Source of the DNA: an uncultured delta proteobacterium
GTDB lineage: Bacteria; Desulfobacterota; Binatia; Binatales; Binataceae
Direction of reading: 5' to 3'
DNA: 64,000 bases
Assembly: GCA_963765675.1 (NCBI GenBank)
Contig: CAVXXK010000014.1
Span: forward strand, 144,818 to 208,817
Under the pieces are notes generated by a model, which saw nothing but the letters and a program-made list of their open reading frames with translations, was not told the DNA's origin and did no database searches. Positions 13,275-50,637 of the stretch are shown here, piece by piece. A program made the position numbers and the translations under genes. Every line of letters begins with the position of its first letter. Position 1 is the first letter of the stretch.

Positions 13275-14741
13275 TTACGGAATCAGGCGGCGATACCACG
13301 GGGTTGACGGCGGCATGTAGCCCGGAGGATAGCCGTAGCCCGGCGCGGGATAGCCGTAGCCAGGTGCGCCGTAACCCGGAGGATAGCCGCCCGGATACAC
13401 AGGTGCGCCGTAGGGACTTCGATACGCGTACGGCGATCCGTAGCCGTAAGGGCTCGCGCCGGGAACGACCATGACGGGCGGCCCGCTCGCGGTGCTCATC
13501 CCTTCGCTGTTCGCGTCGACCGATGCTTCGACAAAATTGCTGCCCAGGCCGTATGCGCGAATCGAGGCTTGCTGCCCCGGTGCCATCTGGAAGACGACGT
13601 CAAACGAATTGTAGGCGCCGGCGCCGATCGGAATCGACTTCATCAGGTGGCCGTTCTCGTAGACGCCTGCGCGATGCACTCCCGCGCCGGAGATCTGTCC
13701 GATTACTTCGTAGCTGCCCGGCTGCGCCGGCGACGGCATCACGCCGAGCACGTTTATCTGCACGTTGGTCAGGGGTCCCTCGACGCCTCCGGGCAGCCTG
13801 CGTCCGGGCGCGCCGGTTGCGTCTTCGGAGCCGTCGGCACGCGGAATCTCTTCGGTATTGTTGCGAGGACCAGGAATTGCGGCCGGATCGGCCGAGGCAA
13901 CCGCCTCGGAATCGAGTTCTCCACCGCCGAGCTCGATCATCTTTTCACGGCCGTCATGCGAATGCGTCAGCGCGGCCGCATCCGGCGCGAGCTGCGCTCG
14001 AGCAACGCGTCCGAGCGCGTCGGTCACCTCGAGCGTCTGCGAAGGCGACGGATCCTGCAATCCGAAATCGAAATTCACGCGCTGCTCGCCGCTCACGTCG
14101 CTGACCGCAATCGTCTTGATAGCGGTCGAGCCGTCGAAGATTCCCGCCGAGCGGAGATCGGTGCCTTCAAAGAATCCACGCACCCGCACGCCGCCGCCCG
14201 TAAACGATCTCGAGCTGATCACGACTTGCGGAGCTTTCGGAGCTTCCGGGGGCAGGCTCGCCGATGGAGTCAAAGGACTGGACGCCGGCGGAGCGCTGGT
14301 TGCGACCGGTCCCGCGACCGGCGTCACCTGCGCTTCGAGCGCCGCGATTTGTCCCTTGATTGAATTCCATTGCGGCAGATCCGGCGCTCCCTTGACCGCG
14401 CGCGCCGCGTCGATTTGATTACGGTCTTTCACGATCGCCGCCATCGCATGGCCCGCCGCCGCGCGGTCGCCCTTGTCGAGCGCGCCGCTCAGCGATTGCG
14501 CGTCGCTGGCGAGGCTCGCGACTGGCGGCAGCATAGCGCCCGCCTTCGCGTCGGCGTCGATCGAGTTGAGCATCGCAAAAGCGGCGTCGCTAAGTCCGGA
14601 CGCTACCGCCTGCGGGGAATCAGCGCGCGTAGCGACGGGAGCAAACACCGCGAGCGCGAATGCCAGAATCGCCGCGGACGCTCGGACGGCCCGAGTCCGA
14701 ATCGTATCGCGCAGACAAAGAAAGTTCCGTACGGTTCGCAT
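13275..14741 (-). CDS. Hypothetical exported protein with Pro/Gly/Tyr-rich C-terminal tail
   Basis: Signal-peptide-like N-terminus (...PVATRA); tail of PGYG/PYG repeats. Confidence 0.65.
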   Translation of the reverse strand: MRTVRNFLCLRDTIRTRAVRASAAILAFALAVFAPVATRADSPQAVASGLSDAAFAMLNSIDADAKAGAMLPPVASLASDAQSLSGALDKGDRAAAGHAMAAIVKDRNQIDAARAVKGAPDLPQWNSIKGQIAALEAQVTPVAGPVATSAPPASSPLTPSASLPPEAPKAPQVVISSRSFTGGGVRVRGFFEGTDLRSAGIFDGSTAIKTIAVSDVSGEQRVNFDFGLQDPSPSQTLEVTDALGRVARAQLAPDAAALTHSHDGREKMIELGGGELDSEAVASADPAAIPGPRNNTEEIPRADGSEDATGAPGRRLPGGVEGPLTNVQINVLGVMPSPAQPGSYEVIGQISGAGVHRAGVYENGHLMKSIPIGAGAYNSFDVVFQMAPGQQASIRAYGLGSNFVEASVDANSEGMSTASGPPVMVVPGASPYGYGSPYAYRSPYGAPVYPGGYPPGYGAPGYGYPAPGYGYPPGYMPPSTPWYRRLIP

Positions 14742-15058: not shown

Positions 15059-16066
15059 GTGGGACATCCTGACATCAATGCTGCGGGTTCGTCGCAGGCG
15101 CTCTCCGCCTCGGGCGACTACCGTGCGCTGCGCGACGGTGCGGGTGCGATCGCGCTTGGCGAGCGCATCGTCGTCCGCGTGACCGGCGACGACCGCGTTT
15201 CGTTTCTCCACGGGATGAGCAGCAACGATATCAAGCAGGCGAGCGCGGGCACGGTGATGCCGGCGCTGTTCCTGACCGAGCATGCACATCTGATCGCGGA
15301 CTTTTTCGCGTGGATCGAACCCGACGCGATTCTTATCGAGATCGATTCCGCGCTATGGACCCGCGCGCGGGCGCATCTGGAAAAGCTGCTGGTCGCCGAC
15401 GACGTCGAGTTCGAGGAGCTGACCGAGCTTGCTGTGATCGATATCGAAGGTCCGCGCGCCGCCGAGGCGGTTCGCGCCGTTGCGGGCGAGAAAGCCGCGG
15501 CGCTCGGCGAATGGAGTTTCGTCCGCGCCGACGACGTGACGGTCGGCAATTTGCCGCGACTCGGATCGAGTGCGTTTACGATTCTGGCGCCGGCTGAAAA
15601 GACCGTGTCGATCCTGGCACAGATAACCGCGCTCGGCCCCGATTTTCGCGCAGTCGGCGCCGATGCGCTCGAAATCGTCCGAGTCGAGAACGGACTGGCG
15701 CTGACCGGCGTCGATACTGTCGAGAAGACTATCGCGCTCGAAGCGCGGCTTGACCGTGCAATCTCGCTGCGCAAGGGATGCTACGTCGGCCAGGAGACGA
15801 TCGAGCGCGCCACCGCCCGCGGCGGACTCCGCAAGCGCCTGTTCGGACTGCGAATCGAGGGCGCGCGCGCGCCGCAGCCAGGATCACCCGTGATGCTCGC
15901 CGGAAAGGAAGTAGGGCGCGTGACCAGCGTGGTGCATTCGCCGAAGCTCGGCGTGATCGCTCTCGCGATCCTGAATCAGAGCGCGTGGGCGCAAGCCTCG
16001 GCGCTTTCGATCGCCGATCCGGCCGGCGAAATCATAGCGCGGACGAGCGAGATTCCGTTCCGTTGA
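15059..16066 (+). CDS. ygfZ: Folate-binding Fe-S repair protein, YgfZ/GcvT family
   Basis: KGCYVGQE signature; VTGDDRVSFLHG. Confidence 0.9.
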   Translation: MGHPDINAAGSSQALSASGDYRALRDGAGAIALGERIVVRVTGDDRVSFLHGMSSNDIKQASAGTVMPALFLTEHAHLIADFFAWIEPDAILIEIDSALWTRARAHLEKLLVADDVEFEELTELAVIDIEGPRAAEAVRAVAGEKAAALGEWSFVRADDVTVGNLPRLGSSAFTILAPAEKTVSILAQITALGPDFRAVGADALEIVRVENGLALTGVDTVEKTIALEARLDRAISLRKGCYVGQETIERATARGGLRKRLFGLRIEGARAPQPGSPVMLAGKEVGRVTSVVHSPKLGVIALAILNQSAWAQASALSIADPAGEIIARTSEIPFR

Positions 16067-16115: not shown

Positions 16116-16259
16116 ATGGCAAACACCCTGGGTAAACGTTACCAGTGCGAAAAGTGCGGCACCGAGGTCCTGTGCAACAAGGCCGGCACCGGCGAGCTCG
16201 AATGCTGCGACCTGCAGATGAAGATCAAAGAGGCCAAGCCGCTTCCTTCGTCTGACTAG
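16116..16259 (+). CDS. Desulforedoxin-like small protein (47 aa) with C-terminal KPLPSSD tail; not in ORF track
   Basis: MANTLGKRYQCEKCGTEVLCNKAGTGELECCDLQMKIKEAKPLPSSD; C-x2-C-x15-CC; AAGGAG RBS 8 nt upstream. Confidence 0.88.
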   Translation: MANTLGKRYQCEKCGTEVLCNKAGTGELECCDLQMKIKEAKPLPSSD

Positions 16260-16287
16260 CCAGCGCCGCGCGCCGCATCGGATCGCA

Positions 16288-17847
16288 GTGGCTGCCACCT
16301 CCGCCAAGGCCGATCTCGTCCTCCATCAGGGCGTGATTTTCGGGCATCGCGATAGCGACTCGGTCGCGGTCAGCGGAGGCCGGATCGTAAGCCACGGCCC
16401 TTATTCGGAACTCAAGGCGCTGGTCGGGCCGAGGACGCATCTGATCAAGCTCGCGGGGCGCACACTCGCGCCCGGTTTTGTGGATGCGCATCTCCATTTT
16501 CTTGAAGCTGCTTCCGCCGTCAGCGGGCTCGCGGTATGGCGATGCCGCAACCTTGCGGATCTGCTGGCAGACCTGCGCGTCGGCGCGGGACGGACTCCGC
16601 CGGGCAACTGGCTGCGCGCGTTCGGATGCGACGAGGCGCTGCTCGCGGGCAAACGCGGCCCGACGCGCGACGAGCTTGATCAGGCGGTCGCGAAGAATCC
16701 GCTGAGGCTGCGGCATCAGACGCTCCATGCTTCATGGCTCAACACTCGTGCGATAAATCAGCTAGGACTCGAAGCCAAAGATTTTCGTCCGCCCCCCGGC
16801 GCCACGATGTTCCGTGACGGAACCGGCAGGCTGACAGGCCTTGTGGTCGGGATGGAAGAGTGGCTGACGCATCATCTGCCGCTCGTGACCAAGGCTGAGC
16901 TCGAGGCGCGCGCGCGCACGATGAGCCGCGAGCTATGCGCTGCCGGAGTAACTGCGTTCACCGACGCAACCGTGCGCAACGGCCCCGAAGAGGTCGAGCT
17001 GTTCGCGAGGCTCGCCGCCTCGGGCGCGATCTGCCAGCGCGTCGCGATGATGGTCGGCGCGCGGCATCTGGAAGCCGCCACCAAAAGCGCGGAGGTTGCG
17101 CACGCCGCCGGAATCCGGCTGGCGGGACTCAAGTTCATGCCCGGCAGCGCCTATGACGGCTCGACCGCGGCGCGCCGCGTGCGCATCGCTCTCAGCAGCG
17201 GACTTGACTGCGCGTTTCATGCGACCGAAGTCGAGGAGCTGGACGAAGCGCTCGAGGCGATCGAGCTCGCGCAGCGCCAGATCGGCGCAGCCAAGACGCC
17301 TGCGGTATGCCGAATCGAGCACGGCGGCGTCATCTCGCCGGATCACATCGCGCGAATCGTGGCTGCGCGCGCGTGGATCGTCACCAATCCCGGTTTCATT
17401 TATTTTCGCGGACCCAAGTACTCAGCCGAGGCGGGACTTGCGCCGCATCTGTATCGTGCCGCCTCGCTGCGCGCGGCCGGAATCGAGCTGGCCGGCGCTT
17501 CCGACGCTCCGGTGACGCCCGCGCGTCCACTCGTCGGTGTGGCCGCCGCAATCTCCCGCGCGACGATCGACGGCAATGTCCTCGGCGCCGAAGAGCGGCT
17601 TGCTCCCGCCGAGGCGTTCGCGCTCTTCACGCGCGACGGCGCCCGCCTCCAGCGCCTGGAGGCCGGCGAGATTGCGCCGGGGATGCTCGCCGATATGGTG
17701 GTGCTCCAGCGCGACCCGATGACGCTCGGTCCCGCCGAGTTGCTCGCGCTCAACGTCGATATGACCCTTATCGCGGGCCGCGTCGTGTACGAACGCGGCC
17801 GTCCCGCGGTCGCCCACAGCGACAGCGCGGATCTTCATTCAGCCTGA
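16288..17847 (+). CDS. Amidohydrolase_3 (YtcJ-like) metal-dependent amidohydrolase
   Basis: PGFVDAHLH, FHA, RIEH, SDAPV, G..ADMVVL motifs. Confidence 0.88.
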   Translation: MAATSAKADLVLHQGVIFGHRDSDSVAVSGGRIVSHGPYSELKALVGPRTHLIKLAGRTLAPGFVDAHLHFLEAASAVSGLAVWRCRNLADLLADLRVGAGRTPPGNWLRAFGCDEALLAGKRGPTRDELDQAVAKNPLRLRHQTLHASWLNTRAINQLGLEAKDFRPPPGATMFRDGTGRLTGLVVGMEEWLTHHLPLVTKAELEARARTMSRELCAAGVTAFTDATVRNGPEEVELFARLAASGAICQRVAMMVGARHLEAATKSAEVAHAAGIRLAGLKFMPGSAYDGSTAARRVRIALSSGLDCAFHATEVEELDEALEAIELAQRQIGAAKTPAVCRIEHGGVISPDHIARIVAARAWIVTNPGFIYFRGPKYSAEAGLAPHLYRAASLRAAGIELAGASDAPVTPARPLVGVAAAISRATIDGNVLGAEERLAPAEAFALFTRDGARLQRLEAGEIAPGMLADMVVLQRDPMTLGPAELLALNVDMTLIAGRVVYERGRPAVAHSDSADLHSA

Positions 17848-17849
17848 TC

Positions 17850-18641
17850 ATGGCGCTTTCGGAAAAAGATAACAGCGCGGTCCTTTATGAGAAGCGCGGC
17901 ACCGTCGCGTGGGTGACGCTCAATCGCCCGGCGCAGTTGAACGCGTACAACGTGGCGATGCGCGATGCCCTGTTCCAGACTCTGAGCGCGATTCACGACG
18001 ACCCCGAGGTCCGCGCGATGGTGCTCTGCGGCGCGGGCAATGCGTTTTCGACCGGCGGCGATCTGCACGAGTTCGGCACCGCGCCGTCGCCCGTCGCCGC
18101 GCGATGGATCCGTTTCCGGCGCGACGTGTGGGGACGCCTGAAATCGCTGCCGGTTCCGACGCTCGCGGCCGTGCACGGCTTCACCGTCGGCGGCGGACTT
18201 GAGATGGCGATGCTGTGCGACCTCGCAATCGCGGCCGACGACACCCGCATCTGTCTGCCTGAAACCGGGGTCGGGATGATTCCCGGCGTGGCGGGCACCC
18301 AGACTGCCTCGCGGCGCCTGCGCCTCGGCCGCGCGCTCGATTTGAACCTCACCGGCCGCTGGATTGACGCGCAAGACGCATTGCTTATAGGTTTGGTCGC
18401 CGAAGTCGTTGCGCCGCCGCGGCTCGAGCGGCGCGCACTCGAAATCGCGCGCGGACTTGCTCGCATGCCCCGGGAACACTCTGCTATCGCCAAGCTCGCG
18501 ATCTGGGGCGGACTCGACCTGCCGCTTAGCGAGGGGCTCGATCTCGAGCGCAGGCTCGCGCGGCGGATGGCAATAATGACGCAGCGCGGCAATACAAAGC
18601 GGCACAATTCAGGAGGTAACGCGGTCCGTGAACACCGTTAA
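17850..18641 (+). CDS. Enoyl-CoA hydratase/isomerase (crotonase) with both catalytic Glu
   Basis: VTLNRPAQLNA, FSTGGD, GGGLEM, LPETGVGMIPG; ATG 2 nt after the amidohydrolase stop. Confidence 0.9.
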   Translation: MALSEKDNSAVLYEKRGTVAWVTLNRPAQLNAYNVAMRDALFQTLSAIHDDPEVRAMVLCGAGNAFSTGGDLHEFGTAPSPVAARWIRFRRDVWGRLKSLPVPTLAAVHGFTVGGGLEMAMLCDLAIAADDTRICLPETGVGMIPGVAGTQTASRRLRLGRALDLNLTGRWIDAQDALLIGLVAEVVAPPRLERRALEIARGLARMPREHSAIAKLAIWGGLDLPLSEGLDLERRLARRMAIMTQRGNTKRHNSGGNAVREHR

Positions 18642-20172
18642 TTTCGTGACGATTCCGTCGTCGATCGTTCCCGATCAGGAGATTGTTGATTTCGGGGATC
18701 GGCGGCTGAATTACGCGCAGTTTGCCGATACCGTTGCGCGCCTATCCACGATCTTCAAGCAGCAGGGACTCGCTCCGCGCGATGTCGTTGCCGCGCTCGA
18801 CACCAATTCCGATCTTTATATCGCCGCCTACTACGCCGCCGCCAAAGCCGGGCTCACCTTCCTGCCGCTCAACTACCGCGCCAAGGAAGCCGAGCTCGAA
18901 TACATGATCAACACCGCGGCGACCAAGGTTCTGCTCGCCGGCGATCGCTATCTTGACCTGATCAAGCGCCTGCGCCCGCGCCTCAAGCTCGCGAACGTCC
19001 TTGCGATCGGCGACGGAGAGCCGGGAATCCCGCGCCTTTCCGATCTGATCGCCAAGGCCGAGCCCGACGAAGCCGAGGCCGAAGTCGAGGACGAGGACAC
19101 TTCGATCCTGATGTACACCAGCGGCACCACGTCGCTGCCGAAGGGCGTGATGCTCTCGTTTCGCGATTTCACCGCGTACGTGACGGCAAACATCGAAATG
19201 GCGGACGGCACCGACCGCGGCGTCGCACTGGTGTGCGTGCCGTTTTACCATATCGCCGGAACCACCGCGTACATGACCAACATCTGGACCGGCAGAAGGC
19301 TGGTCGTGATGCCGCAATTTGACGCCAAAGCGTGGCTGGCTCTGGTCGCGAAGGAGCGGGTCACGCACGCGTTCGTAGTGCCCACGATGATGAAGCAGGT
19401 CCTCGACGAGCCGTCATTCAAATCGACCGATCTTTCGAGCCTGACCAATCTCGCCTATGGCGGCGCGCCGATGCCGATCCAGGTGATCCGCCGCGCGATC
19501 GAGGCGTTCCCCGCCACGGTCGGCTTCGTCAACGCGTACGGACAGACCGAAACCACATCGTCGCTCATCATCCTCGGCCCCGACGACCATCGGATTACCG
19601 GCACACCGCAGGAGAAGGAACAGAAGCTCCGGCGTCTCAACTCGATCGGCAAGCCGCTCCCCGACGTCGAGATCCGCGTGCGCGACGAAGACGGCGCGCT
19701 GCTTCCGCATGGCAAGGTGGGCGAGATCGTCATCCGCACCCCGCGCATCATGAAGGGCTATGCTGGACGCACCGACGACGCCGCGCTGGCCGAAGGATGG
19801 CGCGCGACCGGTGACCTCGGCTGGATCGACGAAGACGGTTACGTGTTTTTCGCCGGCCGCAAGGACGACATGATTATCCGCGGCGGCGAGAATATCGCGC
19901 CGGCCGAAATCGAAACCGTGCTGATGAGCCATCCTGCGGTCGATGAATGCGCGGTGATCGGAGTTCCCTCGGTCGAGTGGGGCCAGACCGTCAAGGCGTT
20001 CGTGGTTTGTCGCGCGGGAGAAAAGATCACGCGCGACGATTTGAGCGAGTTCTGCCGCTCGCGCCTGGCGAGTTTCAAACGCCCCGAGCAGATCGAATTT
20101 ATCGACGCGCTGCCCAAAAATCCCCTGGGCAAGATCCTGCGCAAAGATCTGCGCGCGCCGTCGGGAGACTGA
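18628..20172 (+). CDS. Class I adenylate-forming enzyme (acyl-CoA ligase family)
   Basis: YTSGTTSLPKG, AYGQTE, TGDLG, GRKDDMIIRGGENI, PKNPLGK; AGGAGG RBS. Confidence 0.93.
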   Translation: MNTVNFVTIPSSIVPDQEIVDFGDRRLNYAQFADTVARLSTIFKQQGLAPRDVVAALDTNSDLYIAAYYAAAKAGLTFLPLNYRAKEAELEYMINTAATKVLLAGDRYLDLIKRLRPRLKLANVLAIGDGEPGIPRLSDLIAKAEPDEAEAEVEDEDTSILMYTSGTTSLPKGVMLSFRDFTAYVTANIEMADGTDRGVALVCVPFYHIAGTTAYMTNIWTGRRLVVMPQFDAKAWLALVAKERVTHAFVVPTMMKQVLDEPSFKSTDLSSLTNLAYGGAPMPIQVIRRAIEAFPATVGFVNAYGQTETTSSLIILGPDDHRITGTPQEKEQKLRRLNSIGKPLPDVEIRVRDEDGALLPHGKVGEIVIRTPRIMKGYAGRTDDAALAEGWRATGDLGWIDEDGYVFFAGRKDDMIIRGGENIAPAEIETVLMSHPAVDECAVIGVPSVEWGQTVKAFVVCRAGEKITRDDLSEFCRSRLASFKRPEQIEFIDALPKNPLGKILRKDLRAPSGD

Positions 20173-20175
20173 CCA

Positions 20176-20940
20176 ACGGCGTCCCGCGCGAAAACCCACA
20201 GGCCGGCTCCCGCGCGCGAGCCGATCGAGATCGCGCTCACCGGCGGATGCGTCACCGCGCGGATTATTGACGCGCGCCGTCCGCTCGGCTCGGCGGGCGC
20301 CAACCGGATGCTCGAGCTGTTCGAGCAGGTCGAAGACGACGAATCGATCCTGATGCTCGCGATCACGGGGACCGGCGCGTCGTTCTGCGAAGGATTTGGC
20401 GACGACGTAGATCCGCGAATCGTCGAGTCGTTCGCCGCGATTTCCAAACCGACCGTCGCGATTATCAACGGCAACGCGATCGACGAGGGGCTCGAGCTCG
20501 CGCTCGCGGCCGATATCCGAGTGATTGTCCGCCGCGCCCGGATCGCGCTGACTCAACTAGCGCGCGGCGAGCTTCCGCATTTCGGAGGAACCCAGCGCCT
20601 GGCGCGAATCGCCGGACCCGCGCAGGCGCTCAGGATGCTCCTGACCGGCGCCGCGCTCGACGGCGCCGCGGCCGAGCGCGTCGGTATCGCGACTTATCTG
20701 GCTAAAGACGAACGCGATCTCGCGCGGGCTGCAGGAGCCCTTGCCGAGGCGATTCTCTCTCGCGCCCCGCTCGCGGCGCGGCTGGTCAAAGACGCTGTCC
20801 TCAAGGGATACGATATGACTTTGGAGCAGGGTGTCAGGCTTGAGGAAGATCTGTACGCCCTGCTACAAACGACTGCCGACCGTGGCGAAGGCGTGCGCGC
20901 GTTCCTGGACAAGCGCAAGCCGATTTTCCGCGGCGCTTGA
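20176..20940 (+). CDS. Degenerate enoyl-CoA hydratase-like protein; start uncertain
   Basis: KPTVAIING, GLELALAADIR, GGTQRL, EGVRAFLDKRKPIF. Crotonase-like sequence extends upstream of Met20308 with no canonical start codon. Confidence 0.8.
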   Translation, partial: TASRAKTHRPAPAREPIEIALTGGCVTARIIDARRPLGSAGANRMLELFEQVEDDESILMLAITGTGASFCEGFGDDVDPRIVESFAAISKPTVAIINGNAIDEGLELALAADIRVIVRRARIALTQLARGELPHFGGTQRLARIAGPAQALRMLLTGAALDGAAAERVGIATYLAKDERDLARAAGALAEAILSRAPLAARLVKDAVLKGYDMTLEQGVRLEEDLYALLQTTADRGEGVRAFLDKRKPIFRGA

Positions 20941-20967
20941 AGAATCGATTGCGAAAGGAATGGTGAG

Positions 20968-21087
20968 ATGGCCAATCAACTGGGCAAAGTTTATATCTGC
21001 GCCAAATGCGGCTCGCAGGTGATCGTGACCAAGGGCGGCACCGGCCTGCTCAAATGCTGCGGCGTTCCGATGGAACAGAAAAAGTAA
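20968..21087 (+). CDS. Second desulforedoxin-like small protein (39 aa), no tail; not in ORF track
   Basis: MANQLGKVYICAKCGSQVIVTKGGTGLLKCCGVPMEQKK; C-x2-C-x15-CC; AAAGGA RBS; 21/38 identical to the 16116 protein by manual ungapped alignment. Confidence 0.88.
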   Translation: MANQLGKVYICAKCGSQVIVTKGGTGLLKCCGVPMEQKK

Positions 21088-25940: not shown

Positions 25941-26059
25941 CCGACCTAACCCCTGACCCCTTCCCGCACGGGAAGGGGAACGATCTTCTCGCAGACGCTG
26001 TTTGGGTGTCATCCTGGCCGCCAGGTGAAGGATCTCCGCGAAGCGATTAGTGCAACCAA
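25941..26059. repeat. REP family C hairpin followed by the left half of REP family A
   Basis: ccccttcccg-ca-cgggaagggg at 25957-25978; gtcatcctg...gaaggatctccgcgaagcgattagtgcaacc at 26008-26057. Confidence 0.8.
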
Positions 26060-26151
26060 CATGGCTTTTCGCATCCAGTCTCGACGGGAGACGGGCGGCT
26101 CGTGAGGGGGAGTGTGTACTTAACGTAATTGGCGTTCAGGATCGCGTTCTT

Positions 26152-26644
26152 ATGCCGAATAGAACGTCGATCATTCTTGGTGCACTGGCCGTCGCAGTCG
26201 GCCTCATTGGTGCAGCCGTGAATCTCGGTAACTTCACCAATGTCACCACTGCTGGGGGTCTGATCGCGTTTGCTATTTCGCTGGCTCTGCTAGCGATTGG
26301 CCTTGGGATTCAACCTTATCTGAAGCGAATCGTGCTTCGTTCACGAATCCGGCTTCTTCCAGCGCATTTGGTAGCACCGCCATCTCCACGGTGGACAAAT
26401 TGGAAGGTGAATTTATTCGATTCGCGATGCGTTCGCGGAAGCCGATGCGGCTTTCAATGTGTTGCGCAGCGTCTACGAGTACAACGAACTAGTCACTGTG
26501 CGGAAGGGCATGCGCAATGTTCTTGATATGGGGCCACATCCCTTCATAGTCACGAGAACAGTAGAGGAGCAGTATGCGGTCGCAAAACGCAGTGTGTGGA
26601 AGGCGATGAACGAATTTATCGAAATACATCGGCAGCTAGGTTGA
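26152..26644 (+). pseudogene. AT-richer hypothetical membrane protein, probably frameshifted; IS passenger or neighbour
   Basis: Two TM-like segments, then continuation in a second frame (26459-26644). Confidence 0.35.
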
Positions 26645-26795
26645 AGTCATTTGGCCAACCGCCTTGGGGACGTTTTTTCGCCACAGCCTTCTTTATCGCG
26701 TCCTTCCAGTTGCCTTCGATCTTGAGGACTTCGGGTTTTGGCCCCGGATGCTTACGCGCTTTCGGCTTCGACGCTTTCCCTGATTTGATCGGCAT
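26616..26795 (-). CDS. Small basic ORF overlapping the 3' end of the IS1595 transposase
   Basis: MPIKSGKASKPKARKHPGPKPEVLKIEGNWKDAIKKAVAKKRPQGGWP...; read manually, below the track cutoff. Confidence 0.45.
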   Translation of the reverse strand: MPIKSGKASKPKARKHPGPKPEVLKIEGNWKDAIKKAVAKKRPQGGWPNDFNLAADVFR

Positions 26796-27497
26796 AAGTT
26801 AAACGCTTCCCATTAGCGTTGCGGATGGCAAGCGCGGTGCGCTCGCCATCGTCAATCCTACGCGCATTGTAGCGGAAATCGAATTCTCCCAAGTACCGAT
26901 GCAGATGCTTCTTGCTGACGCTGTGGAACGTACCGTACAGGCCACGCTTGAGCAGCGAGAAAACGCTTTCAATCGTATTGGTCGTAACGTCGCCGCGCAC
27001 GTATTCTTCGGCGTTGTGGTTAACGAAATCGTGCCGCGCAAATGGCTTACCGAGGAAACCGTACAGGTTGAATGAGTCCGTCATGATCCGAGAACGAGAT
27101 CAACGTTCTCCAAAAGAACCTTGCGGAGATTTCCTTCGTAACTCTGTCCATAACAAAGGAACGAACATCGCCGTTGCGCTGCACCATCGCGAACACCGGC
27201 ACCTTTCCCTTCCAGCCTAGATTCTTCGGATTGCGCTGGCTCAGCGGTTTGTTTTTTTCCTTTCCGCGAACATAGGTTTCGTCAGCTTCCACGATTCCGC
27301 TCAGCTTCGGCTTTGGCGTAAATTCGTCGCTCATCGCGAAGCGAATGCGATGCATCATGAACAACGCCGATTTGTATGAGAGTCCAGTCATACGCTGAAT
27401 CTGTTTGCTGCTGACCCCCTTCTTGCTCGCAGCCGCAGCCCAAAAGCCGTAACACCAGTGGCGAAGCGGGATGCAGCGAATCTTCAAGTTCGGTGCC
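26752..27497 (-). mobile_element. Decayed IS1595-family (ISXO2-like) DDE transposase, frameshifted and 5'-truncated
   Basis: IPLRHW...KKGVSS...VEADETY...VNH...EYVRGDVTTNTIES...LKRGLYGTFHSVSKKHLHRYLGEFDFRYN; the N-terminal zinc ribbon is replaced by a REP. Confidence 0.88.
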
Positions 27498-27690
27498 TTC
27501 GGCCTCGCTCAGGACAGGCTCTCGCGCGGCAGCCGGAGCCTGCCCTGAGCCTGCCGAAGGGCGCGGGAGATGACAATGGGACCTTTCTTAGGAGTGGCGC
27601 GTCGCGACGCGCCCGTCTTCTCTTAGGAGTGGCGCGTCGCGACGCGCCCGTCTTCGCACGCCGATGACCCATCGCAGGATGACGACAACC
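27496..27690. repeat. REP family B copy with a perfect 35-bp tandem duplication
   Basis: Inverted near-identical copy of about 5479-5601; tcttaggagtggcgcgtcgcgacgcgcccgtcttc at 27586-27620 and 27621-27655; ends with caggatgacgaca. Confidence 0.85.
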
Positions 27691-28431
27691 TAGGATTTGT
27701 TTCTGCGGTTGTCATTTCCCCGCGTGGCTGCCGCCGCGCGAGGAGGAAGAAGTCAGTTGAGCGACGCGCAGACAGCCGAACCGATCACGTAATGGTATAA
27801 GTCCTCCTCCCTAACTGAAAAGCGATCTGACTGCTTCAAACAACGGCGACGGCGTAGAGGCTAGGGCATCTCTATTTACGAAAACATCGCCATTATAAGT
27901 TGACACCAAGCCATGAACCTTGACGAACACCTCATGCCCCTGAGTCATCGCACGGCTAACTGAAAGAGCATCTCCGAGTTGGGACCGCAGATCACGTTGT
28001 ACTTATAGCAAATCATTCTTTGAATTGGTCGCCACTAGGTCGGTATCTCAACACCTTCAGGAATTCCGAGAGTTCTTCGAGCACGGAATTGACGGAGCTC
28101 CCCTCTCGCACCTTGAGAAAAGGATAGACTTGAGAGTGTTCCGACGCGCTGCTCAGCCAGATGTCACCGTCTGTCGGTGCGCGGCGATCGAAATCTCGAA
28201 CCCGGATTGTAACCACTTTCTCGGTATCGGAGGAGATGAAACCCAGAATCCTCCCCCAAAGTTCGACCGACGAGGAAACAAAGGGTCGATATTTGGGTGC
28301 GCCGGCAAATTATCCGAGCCTGCACCTCAGCGAACTTTTTCTTCACATCCCATCGCCACAACGCCCTCCTGTAGACTAATCTGATGGCGACGGGTCTGTC
28401 AAGCCGGTCGATTCGAGAATTCCAAAGCCAA

Positions 28432-29460
<1,029 letters not shown>

Positions 29461-29520
29461 CGGGGTTCCTCCTCGCAAGGCGAATGGTCGCGAGCCAGCA
29501 CAGTCAACCTCAGTCCGCCA

Positions 29521-49641: not shown

Positions 49642-49746
49642 AAACACCAAGGCACCAGGCAGCCACAAGGACACCAAGACACCAAGAAGAGATTCTTTCT
49701 TCTTAGTGCCTTCGTGTCTTAGTGGCCGGTTGGTGCCTTGGTGTTT
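49642..49746. repeat. Long palindrome built from ACCAAG(A/G)C-like units
   Basis: Perfect 16-bp outer IR aaacaccaaggcacca / tggtgccttggtgttt plus an imperfect inner IR. Confidence 0.8.
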
Positions 49747-49794
49747 TCTTCCAGCGCTTTCCGCGCGGGCGCGAGCCGTGGTAAATCTCGGCCC

Positions 49795-50637
49795 ATGAAA
49801 TTCGGATTATTCGGAATCAATAACGGCCTCTGTGCTTCCCCAAAAACTGCGGCCGCCGTGGCGCGCGCGGCCGAACAGGCCGGATTTGAAAGCCTGTGGA
49901 CGGGCGAGCACGTGATCGTTCCCGATCCTCAAGTGCCGCCGTCGCCGGTGGCGCCCGACTACCCGATGCTCGATCCCGCGATCGCGCTTGCGTTCGTCGC
50001 CGCGCACACCGAGAAGATTCGTCTCGGCACCGGGATAATCATTTTGCCGCAGCGCAATCCCGTCGTGCTGGCAAAGGAACTGGCGACCACTGATGTGCTC
50101 TCGAATGGACGGCTGATTTTCGGAATTGGAGTCGGCTACCTGAAACCGGAGTTCGACGCGATTGGTGCTCCGTTCGATCACAAGGGCGCGCGCAGCGAGG
50201 AATATCTAGCCGCGATGATCGCGTTATGGTCACAACCCAAGCCCGAGTTCAACGGACGATGGGTGAAATTCAAGGGCGTCAACACGATGCCGCGGCCGGT
50301 GCAGAAGCCGCACCCGGAGATCGTGTTCGGTGGACACACCCCGGAGGCGTTCAGCCGCGCCGCGCGGCTGGCAAAAGGATGGTACGGGTTCGCGCTCGAC
50401 CTCGAGGGCGCCAAGAAGTGCATTGCCGGCGTCAAGGAAGCGTGCGCCAAAACGAAGCGCAGTTTCTCAGAGATCGAGATCAGCGTCACTCCGCGTGGAA
50501 AAGTCGATCTGGACACGGCTCGCCGCTTCGCCGAAGCGGGAGTGCATCGGCTGATTCTGCTCCAAAGTGGAAACGACCAGGCGTCCATCCTGACTCAGGT
50601 GAGCGAGGTCGGGCGAAGTCTGATCGGCAAAGTCTAA
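49795..50637 (+). CDS. LLM-class F420-dependent oxidoreductase (Rv2161c-like)
   Basis: GFESLWTGEH, LGTGI.ILPQRNP, GRLIFGIGVG, PVQKPHP. Confidence 0.9.
   Translation: MKFGLFGINNGLCASPKTAAAVARAAEQAGFESLWTGEHVIVPDPQVPPSPVAPDYPMLDPAIALAFVAAHTEKIRLGTGIIILPQRNPVVLAKELATTDVLSNGRLIFGIGVGYLKPEFDAIGAPFDHKGARSEEYLAAMIALWSQPKPEFNGRWVKFKGVNTMPRPVQKPHPEIVFGGHTPEAFSRAARLAKGWYGFALDLEGAKKCIAGVKEACAKTKRSFSEIEISVTPRGKVDLDTARRFAEAGVHRLILLQSGNDQASILTQVSEVGRSLIGKV

Follow-up and report, generated by a model that had tools for sequence, protein, structure and literature searches.

We describe a pair of desulforedoxin-like mini-proteins, Dx1 and Dx2, whose genes bracket an operon in the window, by which we mean the whole 64,000-nucleotide stretch of DNA analysed here. 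Database names place the organism in Candidatus Binataceae, where the Dx peptide is annotated as a "hypothetical protein". We find that Dx1 and Dx2 are conserved genes under purifying selection, and that they are the split form, retaining a four-cysteine (Cys4) site, of a family that usually consists of one chain of about 100 aa. We also find that this module travels with enzymes that convert a carboxylic acid to a CoA thioester. As for its function, the reading that we favor, and to which we give about an even chance, is that the module serves one clade of ANL acyl-CoA ligases as a dedicated accessory protein, with its C-terminal tail engaging the ligase, and is not an electron carrier. An initial annotation, made from the letters of the window, had proposed a new carrier-protein pathway for acyl processing in this operon; its view of the two peptides as a pair that is linked to the ligase and does not carry electrons agrees with what follows, while the carrier pathway itself remains a minority hypothesis.

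The two peptides have cysteines at the same positions, 11, 14, 30 and 31, which gives the spacing C-x2-C-x15-CC, and Dx1 has a fifth cysteine, C20. Shine-Dalgarno-like motifs (AGGAG and AAGGA/GGTGAG) lie 5' of both ATG codons, so that both the cysteine pattern and the ribosome-binding sites reported in the initial annotation are borne out; the identity between the peptides is 21 residues, as it had counted, but over 39 positions rather than 38. Both peptides match the desulforedoxin family PF06397 above its gathering cut-off of 23 bits. Both miss the domain cut-off of NCBIfam TIGR00319, desulf_FeS4 (36.05 bits; Dx1 scores 19.3 and Dx2 27.7), and a Pfam scan of the two at E<=0.01, which included the MbtH hidden Markov model (HMM), gave no family besides PF06397. 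Among orthologues (14 sequences of Dx1 and 15 of Dx2), the mean ratio of nonsynonymous to synonymous differences (pN/pS) is 0.23 and 0.24, respectively, with a pS of about 0.67, which is near saturation. The last 10 codons of Dx1 have a pS of 0.68 and a pN of 0.024, and the tail that they encode, KEAKPLPSSD, ends 18 of 19 Dx1 orthologues, the remaining one ending in KEAKPVPSSD. Dx2 has 16 invariant columns across 20 aligned orthologues, and the Cys4 site is invariant in these 20 as well as in the split Dx1 orthologues.

The operon and the gene that precedes it are made up as follows, in window coordinates.

15059..16066, + strand: YgfZ/CAF17-like folate-binding protein (Pfam GCV_T, 87.3 bits, and GCV_T_C; NCBIfam TIGR03317 CAF17_like_YgfZ, 77.6 bits against a cut-off of 49)

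16116..16259, + strand: Dx1, the tail-bearing half, 47 aa (PF06397, 25.2 bits; C11, C14, C30, C31)

16288..17847, + strand: Amh, an Amidohydro_3 metal-dependent hydrolase, 519 aa (PF07969, 234 bits)

17850..18641, + strand: ECH1, a crotonase (PF00378, 160.7 bits; both catalytic-type Glu positions; short C-terminus)

18628..20172, + strand: Lig, an ANL-superfamily acyl-CoA ligase, 514 aa (PF00501, 271.6 bits; PF13193, 83.2 bits)

20173..20940, + strand: ECH2, a degenerate crotonase (PF00378, 117.4 bits; start uncertain, first canonical start ATG 20308)

20968..21087, + strand: Dx2, the tail-less half, 39 aa (PF06397, 33.1 bits; C11, C14, C30, C31; contains a conserved IVTKGG motif and ends in QKK)

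The six genes from Dx1 to Dx2 are co-oriented and lie where the initial annotation had put them. The tight packing that it described holds for four junctions, with 28 nt between Dx1 and Amh, 2 nt between Amh and ECH1, a 14-nt overlap of ECH1 and Lig, and 27 nt between ECH2 and Dx2; ECH2, which lacks a canonical start until ATG 20308, is the exception. The true start of ECH1 is ATG 17850, within the open reading frame (ORF) 17307-18641. Lig contains both the AMP-binding and the AMP-binding_C domain and thus belongs to the ANL superfamily; its best NCBIfam match, PRK06187, reaches 471.7 bits, below the cut-off of 476. Across 38 aligned ligases, TSGTTSLPKG, YGQTE, GRKDD..RGGENI and a C-terminal GK, which we take to be the ANL motifs, are invariant. 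Amh has no NCBIfam equivalog match at its cut-off. Dx1 and Dx2 are the sole PF06397 matches in the host genome, which is 95.6% complete and in which the catalytic domain of superoxide reductase (SOR), PF01880, was not found, as had been claimed for this locus. A Pfam scan of the operon found no redox enzyme. A scan for promoters and terminators near Dx1 or Dx2 gave nothing above the shuffled expectation, Rfam and tRNA scans of the 64-kb window gave no matches, and no RNA sequencing run with the locus is listed; the runs that match are DNA from soil, sediment and peat, none with a word share above 0.21.

We surveyed 61 genomes of the class Binatia, with tallies that include the unpublished genomes G010 and G027. 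PF06397 matches were found in 49 of the 61, nearly always as two matches about 5 kb apart on the same strand, and in all 36 other genomes of the same family (34 of 34 without G010 and G027). Twenty loci were fetched from 19 of these genomes, of which 18 have the order YgfZ-like, Dx1, Amh (where present), ECH1, Lig, ECH2, Dx2, with ECH1 orthologues that are 51-94% identical. The cluster of G045 contains a 2.3 kb insertion, and that of G020 is in two pieces, YgfZ-Dx1-Amh and ECH1-Lig-ECH2-Dx2. Amh is missing in G041, G057 and G060, which are 3 of the 22 Binatia genomes whose cluster was read, so that release by the amidohydrolase, as proposed in the initial annotation, is not a fixed part of the system.

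The ligase and the Dx module occur together in these genomes. Ligase orthologues (at least 58% identity, the next-best matches being at most 42%) are encoded in 51 of the 61 genomes, and the Dx module is present in all 51. It was not found in seven genomes (G038, G039, G040, G046, G047, G054 and G056), none of which has a ligase match above 42%. Together with the neighborhoods described below, this upholds the claim that the mini-proteins belong with the ligase set. In all 19 fetched loci with Dx1, the YgfZ-like gene is directly 5' of it, as it is in locus L056. It is, in addition, directly 5' of Amh in two clusters without Dx, and it was found in all five genomes tested that lack an orthologue of the window ligase, three of which have no Dx module while the other two, G048 and G055, have the fused form introduced below. 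Because YgfZ is present in genomes without the Dx module, it is not tied exclusively to it.

Three of the genomes with a ligase orthologue, all without a PF06397 match, show how the two mini-genes relate to each other. In G044 and G058, the arrangement YgfZ-Amh-ECH1-Lig-ECH2 is kept with no room for Dx1 or Dx2, and in G049 the ligase orthologue is kept next to a CoA-transferase. Each of these three encodes, elsewhere, a single ORF in which a Dx2-like half is joined through a linker of about 20 residues to a Dx1-like half that ends in the tail ...LKEAKPLPSSD; the Cys4 sites of both halves are lost. G042, which is of the same genus as G058, has the usual split Cys4 pair inside the cluster. In G048 and G055, which have no window-type ligase, a fused, Cys-poor form is encoded 7-20 nt ahead of a ligase gene whose product has 35-37% identity to that of the window, with a crotonase nearby. 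Dx2 matches the N-terminal repeat of the fused forms. In most bacteria that have the protein, the single chain runs from a Dx2-like repeat through a linker to a Dx1-like repeat and an invariant, free C-terminal tail. The fact that the two mini-genes are lost and gained together, and that a single metal-free chain can replace them, supports the idea of a heterodimer and opposes a redox role; the earlier proposal that Dx1 and Dx2 work as a pair is strengthened by these fused ORFs and by the dominance of tandem forms in the wider family. In the split form, the two halves would pair as desulforedoxin monomers do, each probably keeping its Cys4 metal site as a structural clamp.

The wider family is large and has gone mostly without a name. 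A profile of Dx1-type sequences matched 1251 clusters (50% identity) at E<=1e-3 and 506 at E<=1e-10. Among the best 150 matches, 126 end in P-x-x-D and 86 are tandem forms without Cys4 in either repeat; a few members retain Cys4 in both repeats. When split Dx1 sequences are aligned with the C-terminal halves of fused forms, the invariant positions are L5, G6, K7, R8, Y9, E17, L19, K22 and G24, followed in the tail by K38, E39, A40, K41, P44, S45, S46 and D47; the cysteines are not invariant. The most constrained element of the module is this free C-terminal tail. The Cys-less fused forms that we tested gave no Pfam or NCBIfam model above cut-off, and the Protein Atlas has only "hypothetical protein" clusters for the family, from Actinomycetota and Pseudomonadota.

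The desulforedoxin fold was examined on a fused relative, P0149, rather than on the window peptides themselves. Its AlphaFold2 model (pLDDT 93.5, pTM 0.83) has a second repeat that superposes on all 36 residues of desulforedoxin 1cfw_A with a root-mean-square deviation (rmsd) of 1.4 A and a Z of 3.3, which is low because the domain is small; 1cfw_A was the top hit among 48,161 chains. A Foldseek search of the model against the PDB gave no match at E<=0.001, and a profile search of solved structures gave weak matches only to desulfoferrodoxin and desulforedoxin (best E 8.2e-4). No literature was found that links desulforedoxin with acyl-CoA synthetase or enoyl-CoA hydratase, or Binatia with acyl-CoA synthetase; what was found on desulforedoxin-like proteins concerns oxygen tolerance in Clostridioides difficile, and these searches gave no paper on a protein like the Dx module.

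Some relatives are longer. In one, P0171 (234 aa), a plant-type 2Fe-2S ferredoxin domain (Fer2, E 1.8e-10) at the N-terminus precedes a Cys-less tandem module that ends in the PLPSSD tail. To judge from its sequence this fusion looks genuine, and a metagenome scan found no relatives of it. Apparent fusions of the module to CoA_transf_3 and to P450, among five longer proteins, were rejected as single-member clusters with Arg/Ala-rich middles resembling frame errors. No credible fusion C-terminal to the tail was seen among the longer relatives that were read.

To see which genes surround the module across phyla, we scanned one genome per species for LKEAKPLPS, which yielded 257 confirmed places in Binatia, Myxococcota, Alpha- and Gammaproteobacteria and Actinomycetota. 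This exact tail pattern under-samples relatives with variant tails. Gene calls in the fetched loci are crude, since ORFs were picked by GC content at third codon positions and some crotonases were mis-called on the opposite strand. Neighbor counts refer to the best 80 loci, whose carriers include Binatia-like "Deltaproteobacteria" metagenome-assembled genomes, Myxococcota, Halioglobus, Sinimarinibacterium flocculans, Phenylobacterium, Novosphingobium bradum and, from the Actinomycetota, Frankia, Acidimicrobiia and Microthrixaceae. Of these loci, 70 have at least 1600 nt downstream and form the informative set. In 44 of these 70, an ANL ligase starts within 400 nt downstream on the same strand, and its distance from the stop of the fused gene is often 7 nt; a crotonase follows the ligase in 29 of the 37 loci with sufficient flank. 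In Frankia the ligase is immediately upstream of the fused gene instead, and two Microthrixaceae loci have a molybdenum hydroxylase downstream. Loci with a family III CoA-transferase frequently have the order Amidohydro_2, fused gene, (AraC), CoA-transferase, ACAD, with Amidohydro_2 directly upstream of the fused gene in 6 loci.

Other genes recur in these neighborhoods, namely ACAD (18 loci), SCP-x-type thiolase (14), FAD_binding_2 (11), a CCG/Fer4 oxidoreductase (9), Amidohydro_3 (8), SDR (8) and IscS (6, all Binatia-like). ETF is also among the common neighbors, and genes of the DUF35 type (zf-ChsH2/OB_ChsH2_C) are found near fused Dx genes; neither ATP-grasp nor phosphopantetheinyl transferase (PPTase) is among the recurrent neighbors of the 80 loci. 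The homologues are not placed beside SOR or rubrerythrin genes, and their neighborhood is conserved; the initial annotation had named the opposite pattern as one that would speak against its proposal. A quick IQ-TREE maximum likelihood tree of the ligases, with an outgroup limited to 14 paralogue rows, splits 23 window-type and 15 fused-adjacent ligases from these 14 Dx-less Binatia paralogues with an SH-aLRT of 99, so that the ligase of the window groups with those adjacent to fused Dx genes and apart from the Dx-less paralogues.

Two further observations concern the surroundings of the module. At locus L066 of G048 (G048:C237, 5436-7479), a cysteine desulfurase (Aminotran_5) and a NifU_N protein are encoded directly upstream of the fused Dx-tail gene and ligase, and the related loci L087, L088, L091, L099 and L100 have the same Aminotran_5/NifU_N layout. 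Fe-S biogenesis genes of two kinds therefore share the same position, IscS-IscU in the G048 lineage and YgfZ-like in the window lineage, which may be a coincidence; a link to IscS-IscU as a general feature was rejected, as it is seen in these 6 related loci only. Separately, luciferase-like monooxygenase genes are frequent in the window (for example at 28432-29478 and 49738-50637), and they also adjoin the fused Dx-tail gene in other genomes, in 5 and 4 loci of two clusters; L064, L065 and L139 are loci where they were noted.

Given the desulforedoxin family match, the most obvious function would be a redox one: Cys4 would bind Fe, and the pair would be an electron or iron carrier of the desulforedoxin type, maybe linked to Fe-S cluster repair. 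The exact desulforedoxin spacing in two peptides that pass PF06397, the invariance of Cys4 in the split forms, the YgfZ-like gene upstream of every fetched Dx1, the IscS and NifU_N genes in G048 and its 5 related loci, and the frequency of ETF, ACAD and Fe-S oxidoreductases among the neighbors are all what this explanation would expect. It would not expect the 86 Cys4-less relatives among the best 150, which keep the tail and the same neighbors, nor the replacement, within one genus, of the Cys4 pair of G042 by the Cys-less fused form of G058 alongside the same cluster. YgfZ, moreover, heads the cluster without Dx1 too and occurs in genomes without the module, and the operon has no redox enzyme and the genome no SOR domain. 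Judging by the loss of cysteines in most members, redox chemistry is unlikely to be the function of the family, and we regard an electron- or iron-carrying role for the pair as very improbable. The initial annotation had likewise argued against a plain electron carrier.

The favored reading, that of an accessory partner to the ligase, starts from the tail. The likely working part of the module is its end, ...K-E-A-K-P-L-P-S-S-D-COOH, in which Pro-Leu-Pro would act as a rigid spacer ahead of small residues and the terminal Asp. Such a tail would extend into the ligase, within or close to its active-site cleft, and would assist or gate the formation of acyl-CoA for the flanking crotonases. A precedent for this kind of arrangement is offered by MbtH-like proteins, small proteins that are obligate partners of adenylating enzymes from the superfamily to which the ligase belongs; the initial annotation had listed an MbtH-like activator or a scaffold as its alternative, and this alternative fits the evidence better than the carrier pathway that it preferred. 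A prediction of the complex of ligase, Dx1 and Dx2 also points, weakly, to binding. It scored 0.40 (runs 0.42, 0.07 and 0.40), against 0.06 for the best of 3 controls and 0.02 when Dx1 was swapped for an unrelated protein; the runs have at least 36% of their contacts in common, and the partner pLDDT is at least 87. In the calibration, 116 of 157 solved complexes passed, as did 2 of 215 mismatched pairs, and passes at or below 0.60 comprised only 18 of the 157 solved complexes and both of the passing mismatches; unlike the calibration, the present job used custom alignments and three chains. The multimer prediction suggested in the initial annotation thus came out as weak support.

Several points weigh against this reading. 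By the counts of the calibration, a pass as weak as the one obtained is wrong in more cases than it is right, absent a good prior, and one of the three runs gave 0.07. No such ligase is found downstream in 26 of the 70 informative loci, and 16 of these 26 hold a family III CoA-transferase, whose fold is unrelated; such neighbors fit a substrate-linked or CoA-thioester-linked role better than a chaperone specific to the ligase fold. Because the neighbor in other lineages is this CoA-transferase, the module goes more broadly with acyl-CoA-forming enzymes. In G020, Dx1 stays with YgfZ and Amh, apart from the ligase, and the fused genes of G044, G049 and G058 are unlinked to the cluster and have no neighbor common to all three. 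Finally, the genomes compared are kin rather than independent, and the counts overstate the number of independent events.

The CoA-transferase loci bring us to an explanation in which the module is itself a carrier or substrate. Here the tail would be a covalent handle, with its terminal Asp activated by the ANL ligase (adenylated, then thioesterified) or CoA-thioesterified by the family III CoA-transferase; in a variant, the tail would be amide- or ester-linked to an intermediate. In either version, the crotonases and other acyl-CoA enzymes would act on a substrate tethered to or protected by the protein, and an amidohydrolase would release it, much as for LysW. This explanation is close to the pathway proposed in the initial annotation. 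Taken together, we think these two versions unlikely. They account better than the favored reading for the presence of two unrelated carboxylate-activating neighbors, ANL ligase and CoA_transf_3. They also suit the extreme conservation of the tail relative to the fold, as shown by its low pN and by the invariance of K38-K41 and P44-D47 from split Cys4 forms to Cys-less fused forms that are less than 50% identical, and its position, which is always the free C-terminus. Ubiquitin-like and LysW tails thread into their activating enzymes, and the small residues and terminal acidic residue of the Dx tail may recall them. Amidohydrolases recur nearby, with Amidohydro_3 in the window cluster and 8 other loci, and Amidohydro_2 in the 6 loci already mentioned.

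Much about the enzymes, on the other hand, speaks against a tethered intermediate. We know of no precedent in which an ANL enzyme or a family III CoA-transferase acts on a protein C-terminus, although the literature was not searched for one. The neighbors, ECH, ACAD, thiolase and ETF, are ordinary CoA-thioester enzymes, neither ATP-grasp nor PPTase recurs among them, 3 of 22 Binatia clusters lack the amidohydrolase, and the complex prediction returned no contacts and so does not place the tail in the active site. A LysW-like system with a different fold and activating enzyme (ANL ligase or CoA-transferase), in which the protein would be a carrier or protecting group for an intermediate processed by crotonases and other enzymes of the beta-oxidation type, with release by an amidohydrolase and a distribution over several phyla, is in our estimate unlikely.

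The two crotonases bear on a third alternative. ECH1 keeps its GGGLEMA and LPETG motifs in 4 of 4 aligned rows, and the aligned Glu positions are presumably the catalytic residues of crotonases; by its HMM match and both Glu residues, ECH1 qualifies as a crotonase. In ECH2, the GGG of the oxyanion-hole loop is replaced; of 10 orthologues, 8 have Gln where the second Glu would be, one has Cys and one has Glu. This matches the earlier description of the second crotonase as degenerate and makes its membership among catalytic crotonases doubtful. ECH1 ends early, without the usual C-terminal ...F..KR.P.F.G segment, which ECH2 keeps. These complementary defects suggest that ECH1 and ECH2 may form an obligate hetero-oligomer.

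The start of ECH2 is peculiar as well. From the ligase TGA (20170-20172) up to ATG 20308, ECH2 offers no ATG, GTG or TTG codon, and yet homology reaches back to the ligase stop in the same frame, with a conserved N-terminal strand, EPIEIALTGGCVTARI. Begun at ATG 20308, ECH2 would lose about 45 residues and cover profile positions 86-249 only of PF00378. The in-frame Lig-ECH2 layout is found in five other genomes of the genus; G003, G005 and G006 likewise lack a canonical ECH2 start, G004 has GTG and G007 has an ATG further in. In G009 there is an ATGA overlap in another frame together with a 1-nt indel. Read-through of the TGA to give a Lig-ECH2 fusion, non-canonical re-initiation and a truncated ECH2 are all possibilities. 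Read-through as a conserved feature was rejected, as ligase and ECH2 share a frame in 6 of 18 loci across families, which is what chance would give.

In the third alternative, the two-repeat module would be a scaffold or adaptor that bridges the CoA-activating enzyme and the enzymes that act next (ECH1 and ECH2, or, beside the CoA-transferase, ACAD) for channelling. The Dx halves at both ends of the enzyme set in the window would suit such a bridge, as would the complementary defects of ECH1 and ECH2, the Fer2 fusion of P0171, which looks as though the module brings cargo to a partner, and, by analogy, the DUF35 zinc-ribbon/OB proteins that scaffold thiolase-type enzymes; DUF35-type proteins and SCP-x-type thiolases are themselves found in the same neighborhoods. 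No second partner is constant, however; only the CoA-activating enzyme recurs at high frequency, and in three Binatia genomes the fused gene is unlinked to any enzyme. We consider a scaffold distinctly improbable, and return to the accessory partner of a CoA-activating ligase as the reading that we favor.

Two other features of the window lie apart from the operon. On the - strand at 13275-14741 is an ORF of 488 aa whose N-terminus is signal-like and whose C-terminus has a Pro/Gly/Tyr-rich repeat, GYPPGYGAPGYGYPAPGYGYPPGY; it has no Pfam match at E<=1e-6. A broken IS1595-family transposase is at 26752-27487, also on the - strand, in a low-GC patch (26001-28000, GC 0.545); its two overlapping ORFs match positions 1-64 and 81-153 of the DDE_Tnp_IS1595 profile.

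Few enzymes that break down lipids, aromatics and steroids have been studied as much as acyl-CoA ligases, and yet a whole clade of them is accompanied, in at least 257 species genomes from several phyla, by a dedicated protein of some 100 aa or, as here, by two mini-proteins, which are mostly annotated as "hypothetical" or missed by gene calling. Should the module prove obligate for these ligases, work that expressed them in other hosts and assayed them without it may have misled; if the tail is a covalent handle, this would be a new kind of protein-tethered metabolism. The family may also be instructive for the evolution of folds, with a redox metal site kept as a structural clamp in the split form and dropped once the halves were fused. 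Direct testing is feasible because the fused form is found in harmless bacteria that have been cultured, namely Novosphingobium bradum, Phenylobacterium, Sinimarinibacterium and Frankia.

How does the module compare with known systems? By family, it is closest to desulforedoxin (Desulfovibrio gigas Dx; PDB 1dxg/1cfw) and the N-terminal domain of desulfoferrodoxin, with which Dx1 and Dx2 share PF06397 and the C-x2-C-x15-CC spacing, and with which the modelled fused relative shares its fold (1cfw_A, rmsd 1.4 A over 36 residues). Desulforedoxin is a homodimer, whereas the module would be a heterodimer or is a tandem chain, in which the copies have diverged into a fixed pair (21 of 39 residues identical). 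Desulforedoxin also lacks the invariant 10-residue tail carried by Dx1, most of the relatives described here have lost the metal site, and their neighbors are acyl-CoA enzymes rather than SOR or rubrerythrin.

The resemblance to MbtH-like proteins would be one of function: in both cases a small protein beside an ANL-superfamily enzyme is tied to a clade of that enzyme and is plausibly needed for its folding or activity. Sequence and fold are unrelated, and Dx1 and Dx2 do not belong to the MbtH family. MbtH-like proteins partner the A domains of non-ribosomal peptide synthetases, whereas the partners here would be acyl-CoA ligases and, for some relatives, CoA-transferases, and it is the tail that is most conserved in the Dx module. 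LysW, the precedent invoked in the initial annotation, is a tiny protein of the zinc-ribbon type with a conserved acidic C-terminal tail, encoded in a pathway operon with a ligase and a metal hydrolase. Small size, ribbon type, acidic tail and an operon with a ligase and a metal hydrolase are common to the Dx module. The analogy breaks down at the loading enzyme, which is an ATP-grasp enzyme (LysX) for LysW and an ANL ligase here; moreover, the LysW motif differs from the Asp that follows Ser-Ser here, the other enzymes here are those of CoA thioesters, and the hydrolase is not constant.

DUF35 zinc-ribbon/OB proteins, which include the scaffold of thiolase-HMGCS and ChsH2/Shy with the Ltp2/Sal aldolases, may be alike as non-catalytic Cys4-ribbon accessories that bind an acyl-CoA enzyme; one report describes copurification of the DUF35 domain of Shy with Sal (PMC11321319). 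They differ in fold and family, have an OB domain and no conserved tail, and partner enzymes of the thiolase fold rather than CoA-activating enzymes. Altogether, the closest family of the module is desulforedoxin, and its functional analogues are MbtH-like proteins, LysW and DUF35 proteins, the module being a member of none of these three.

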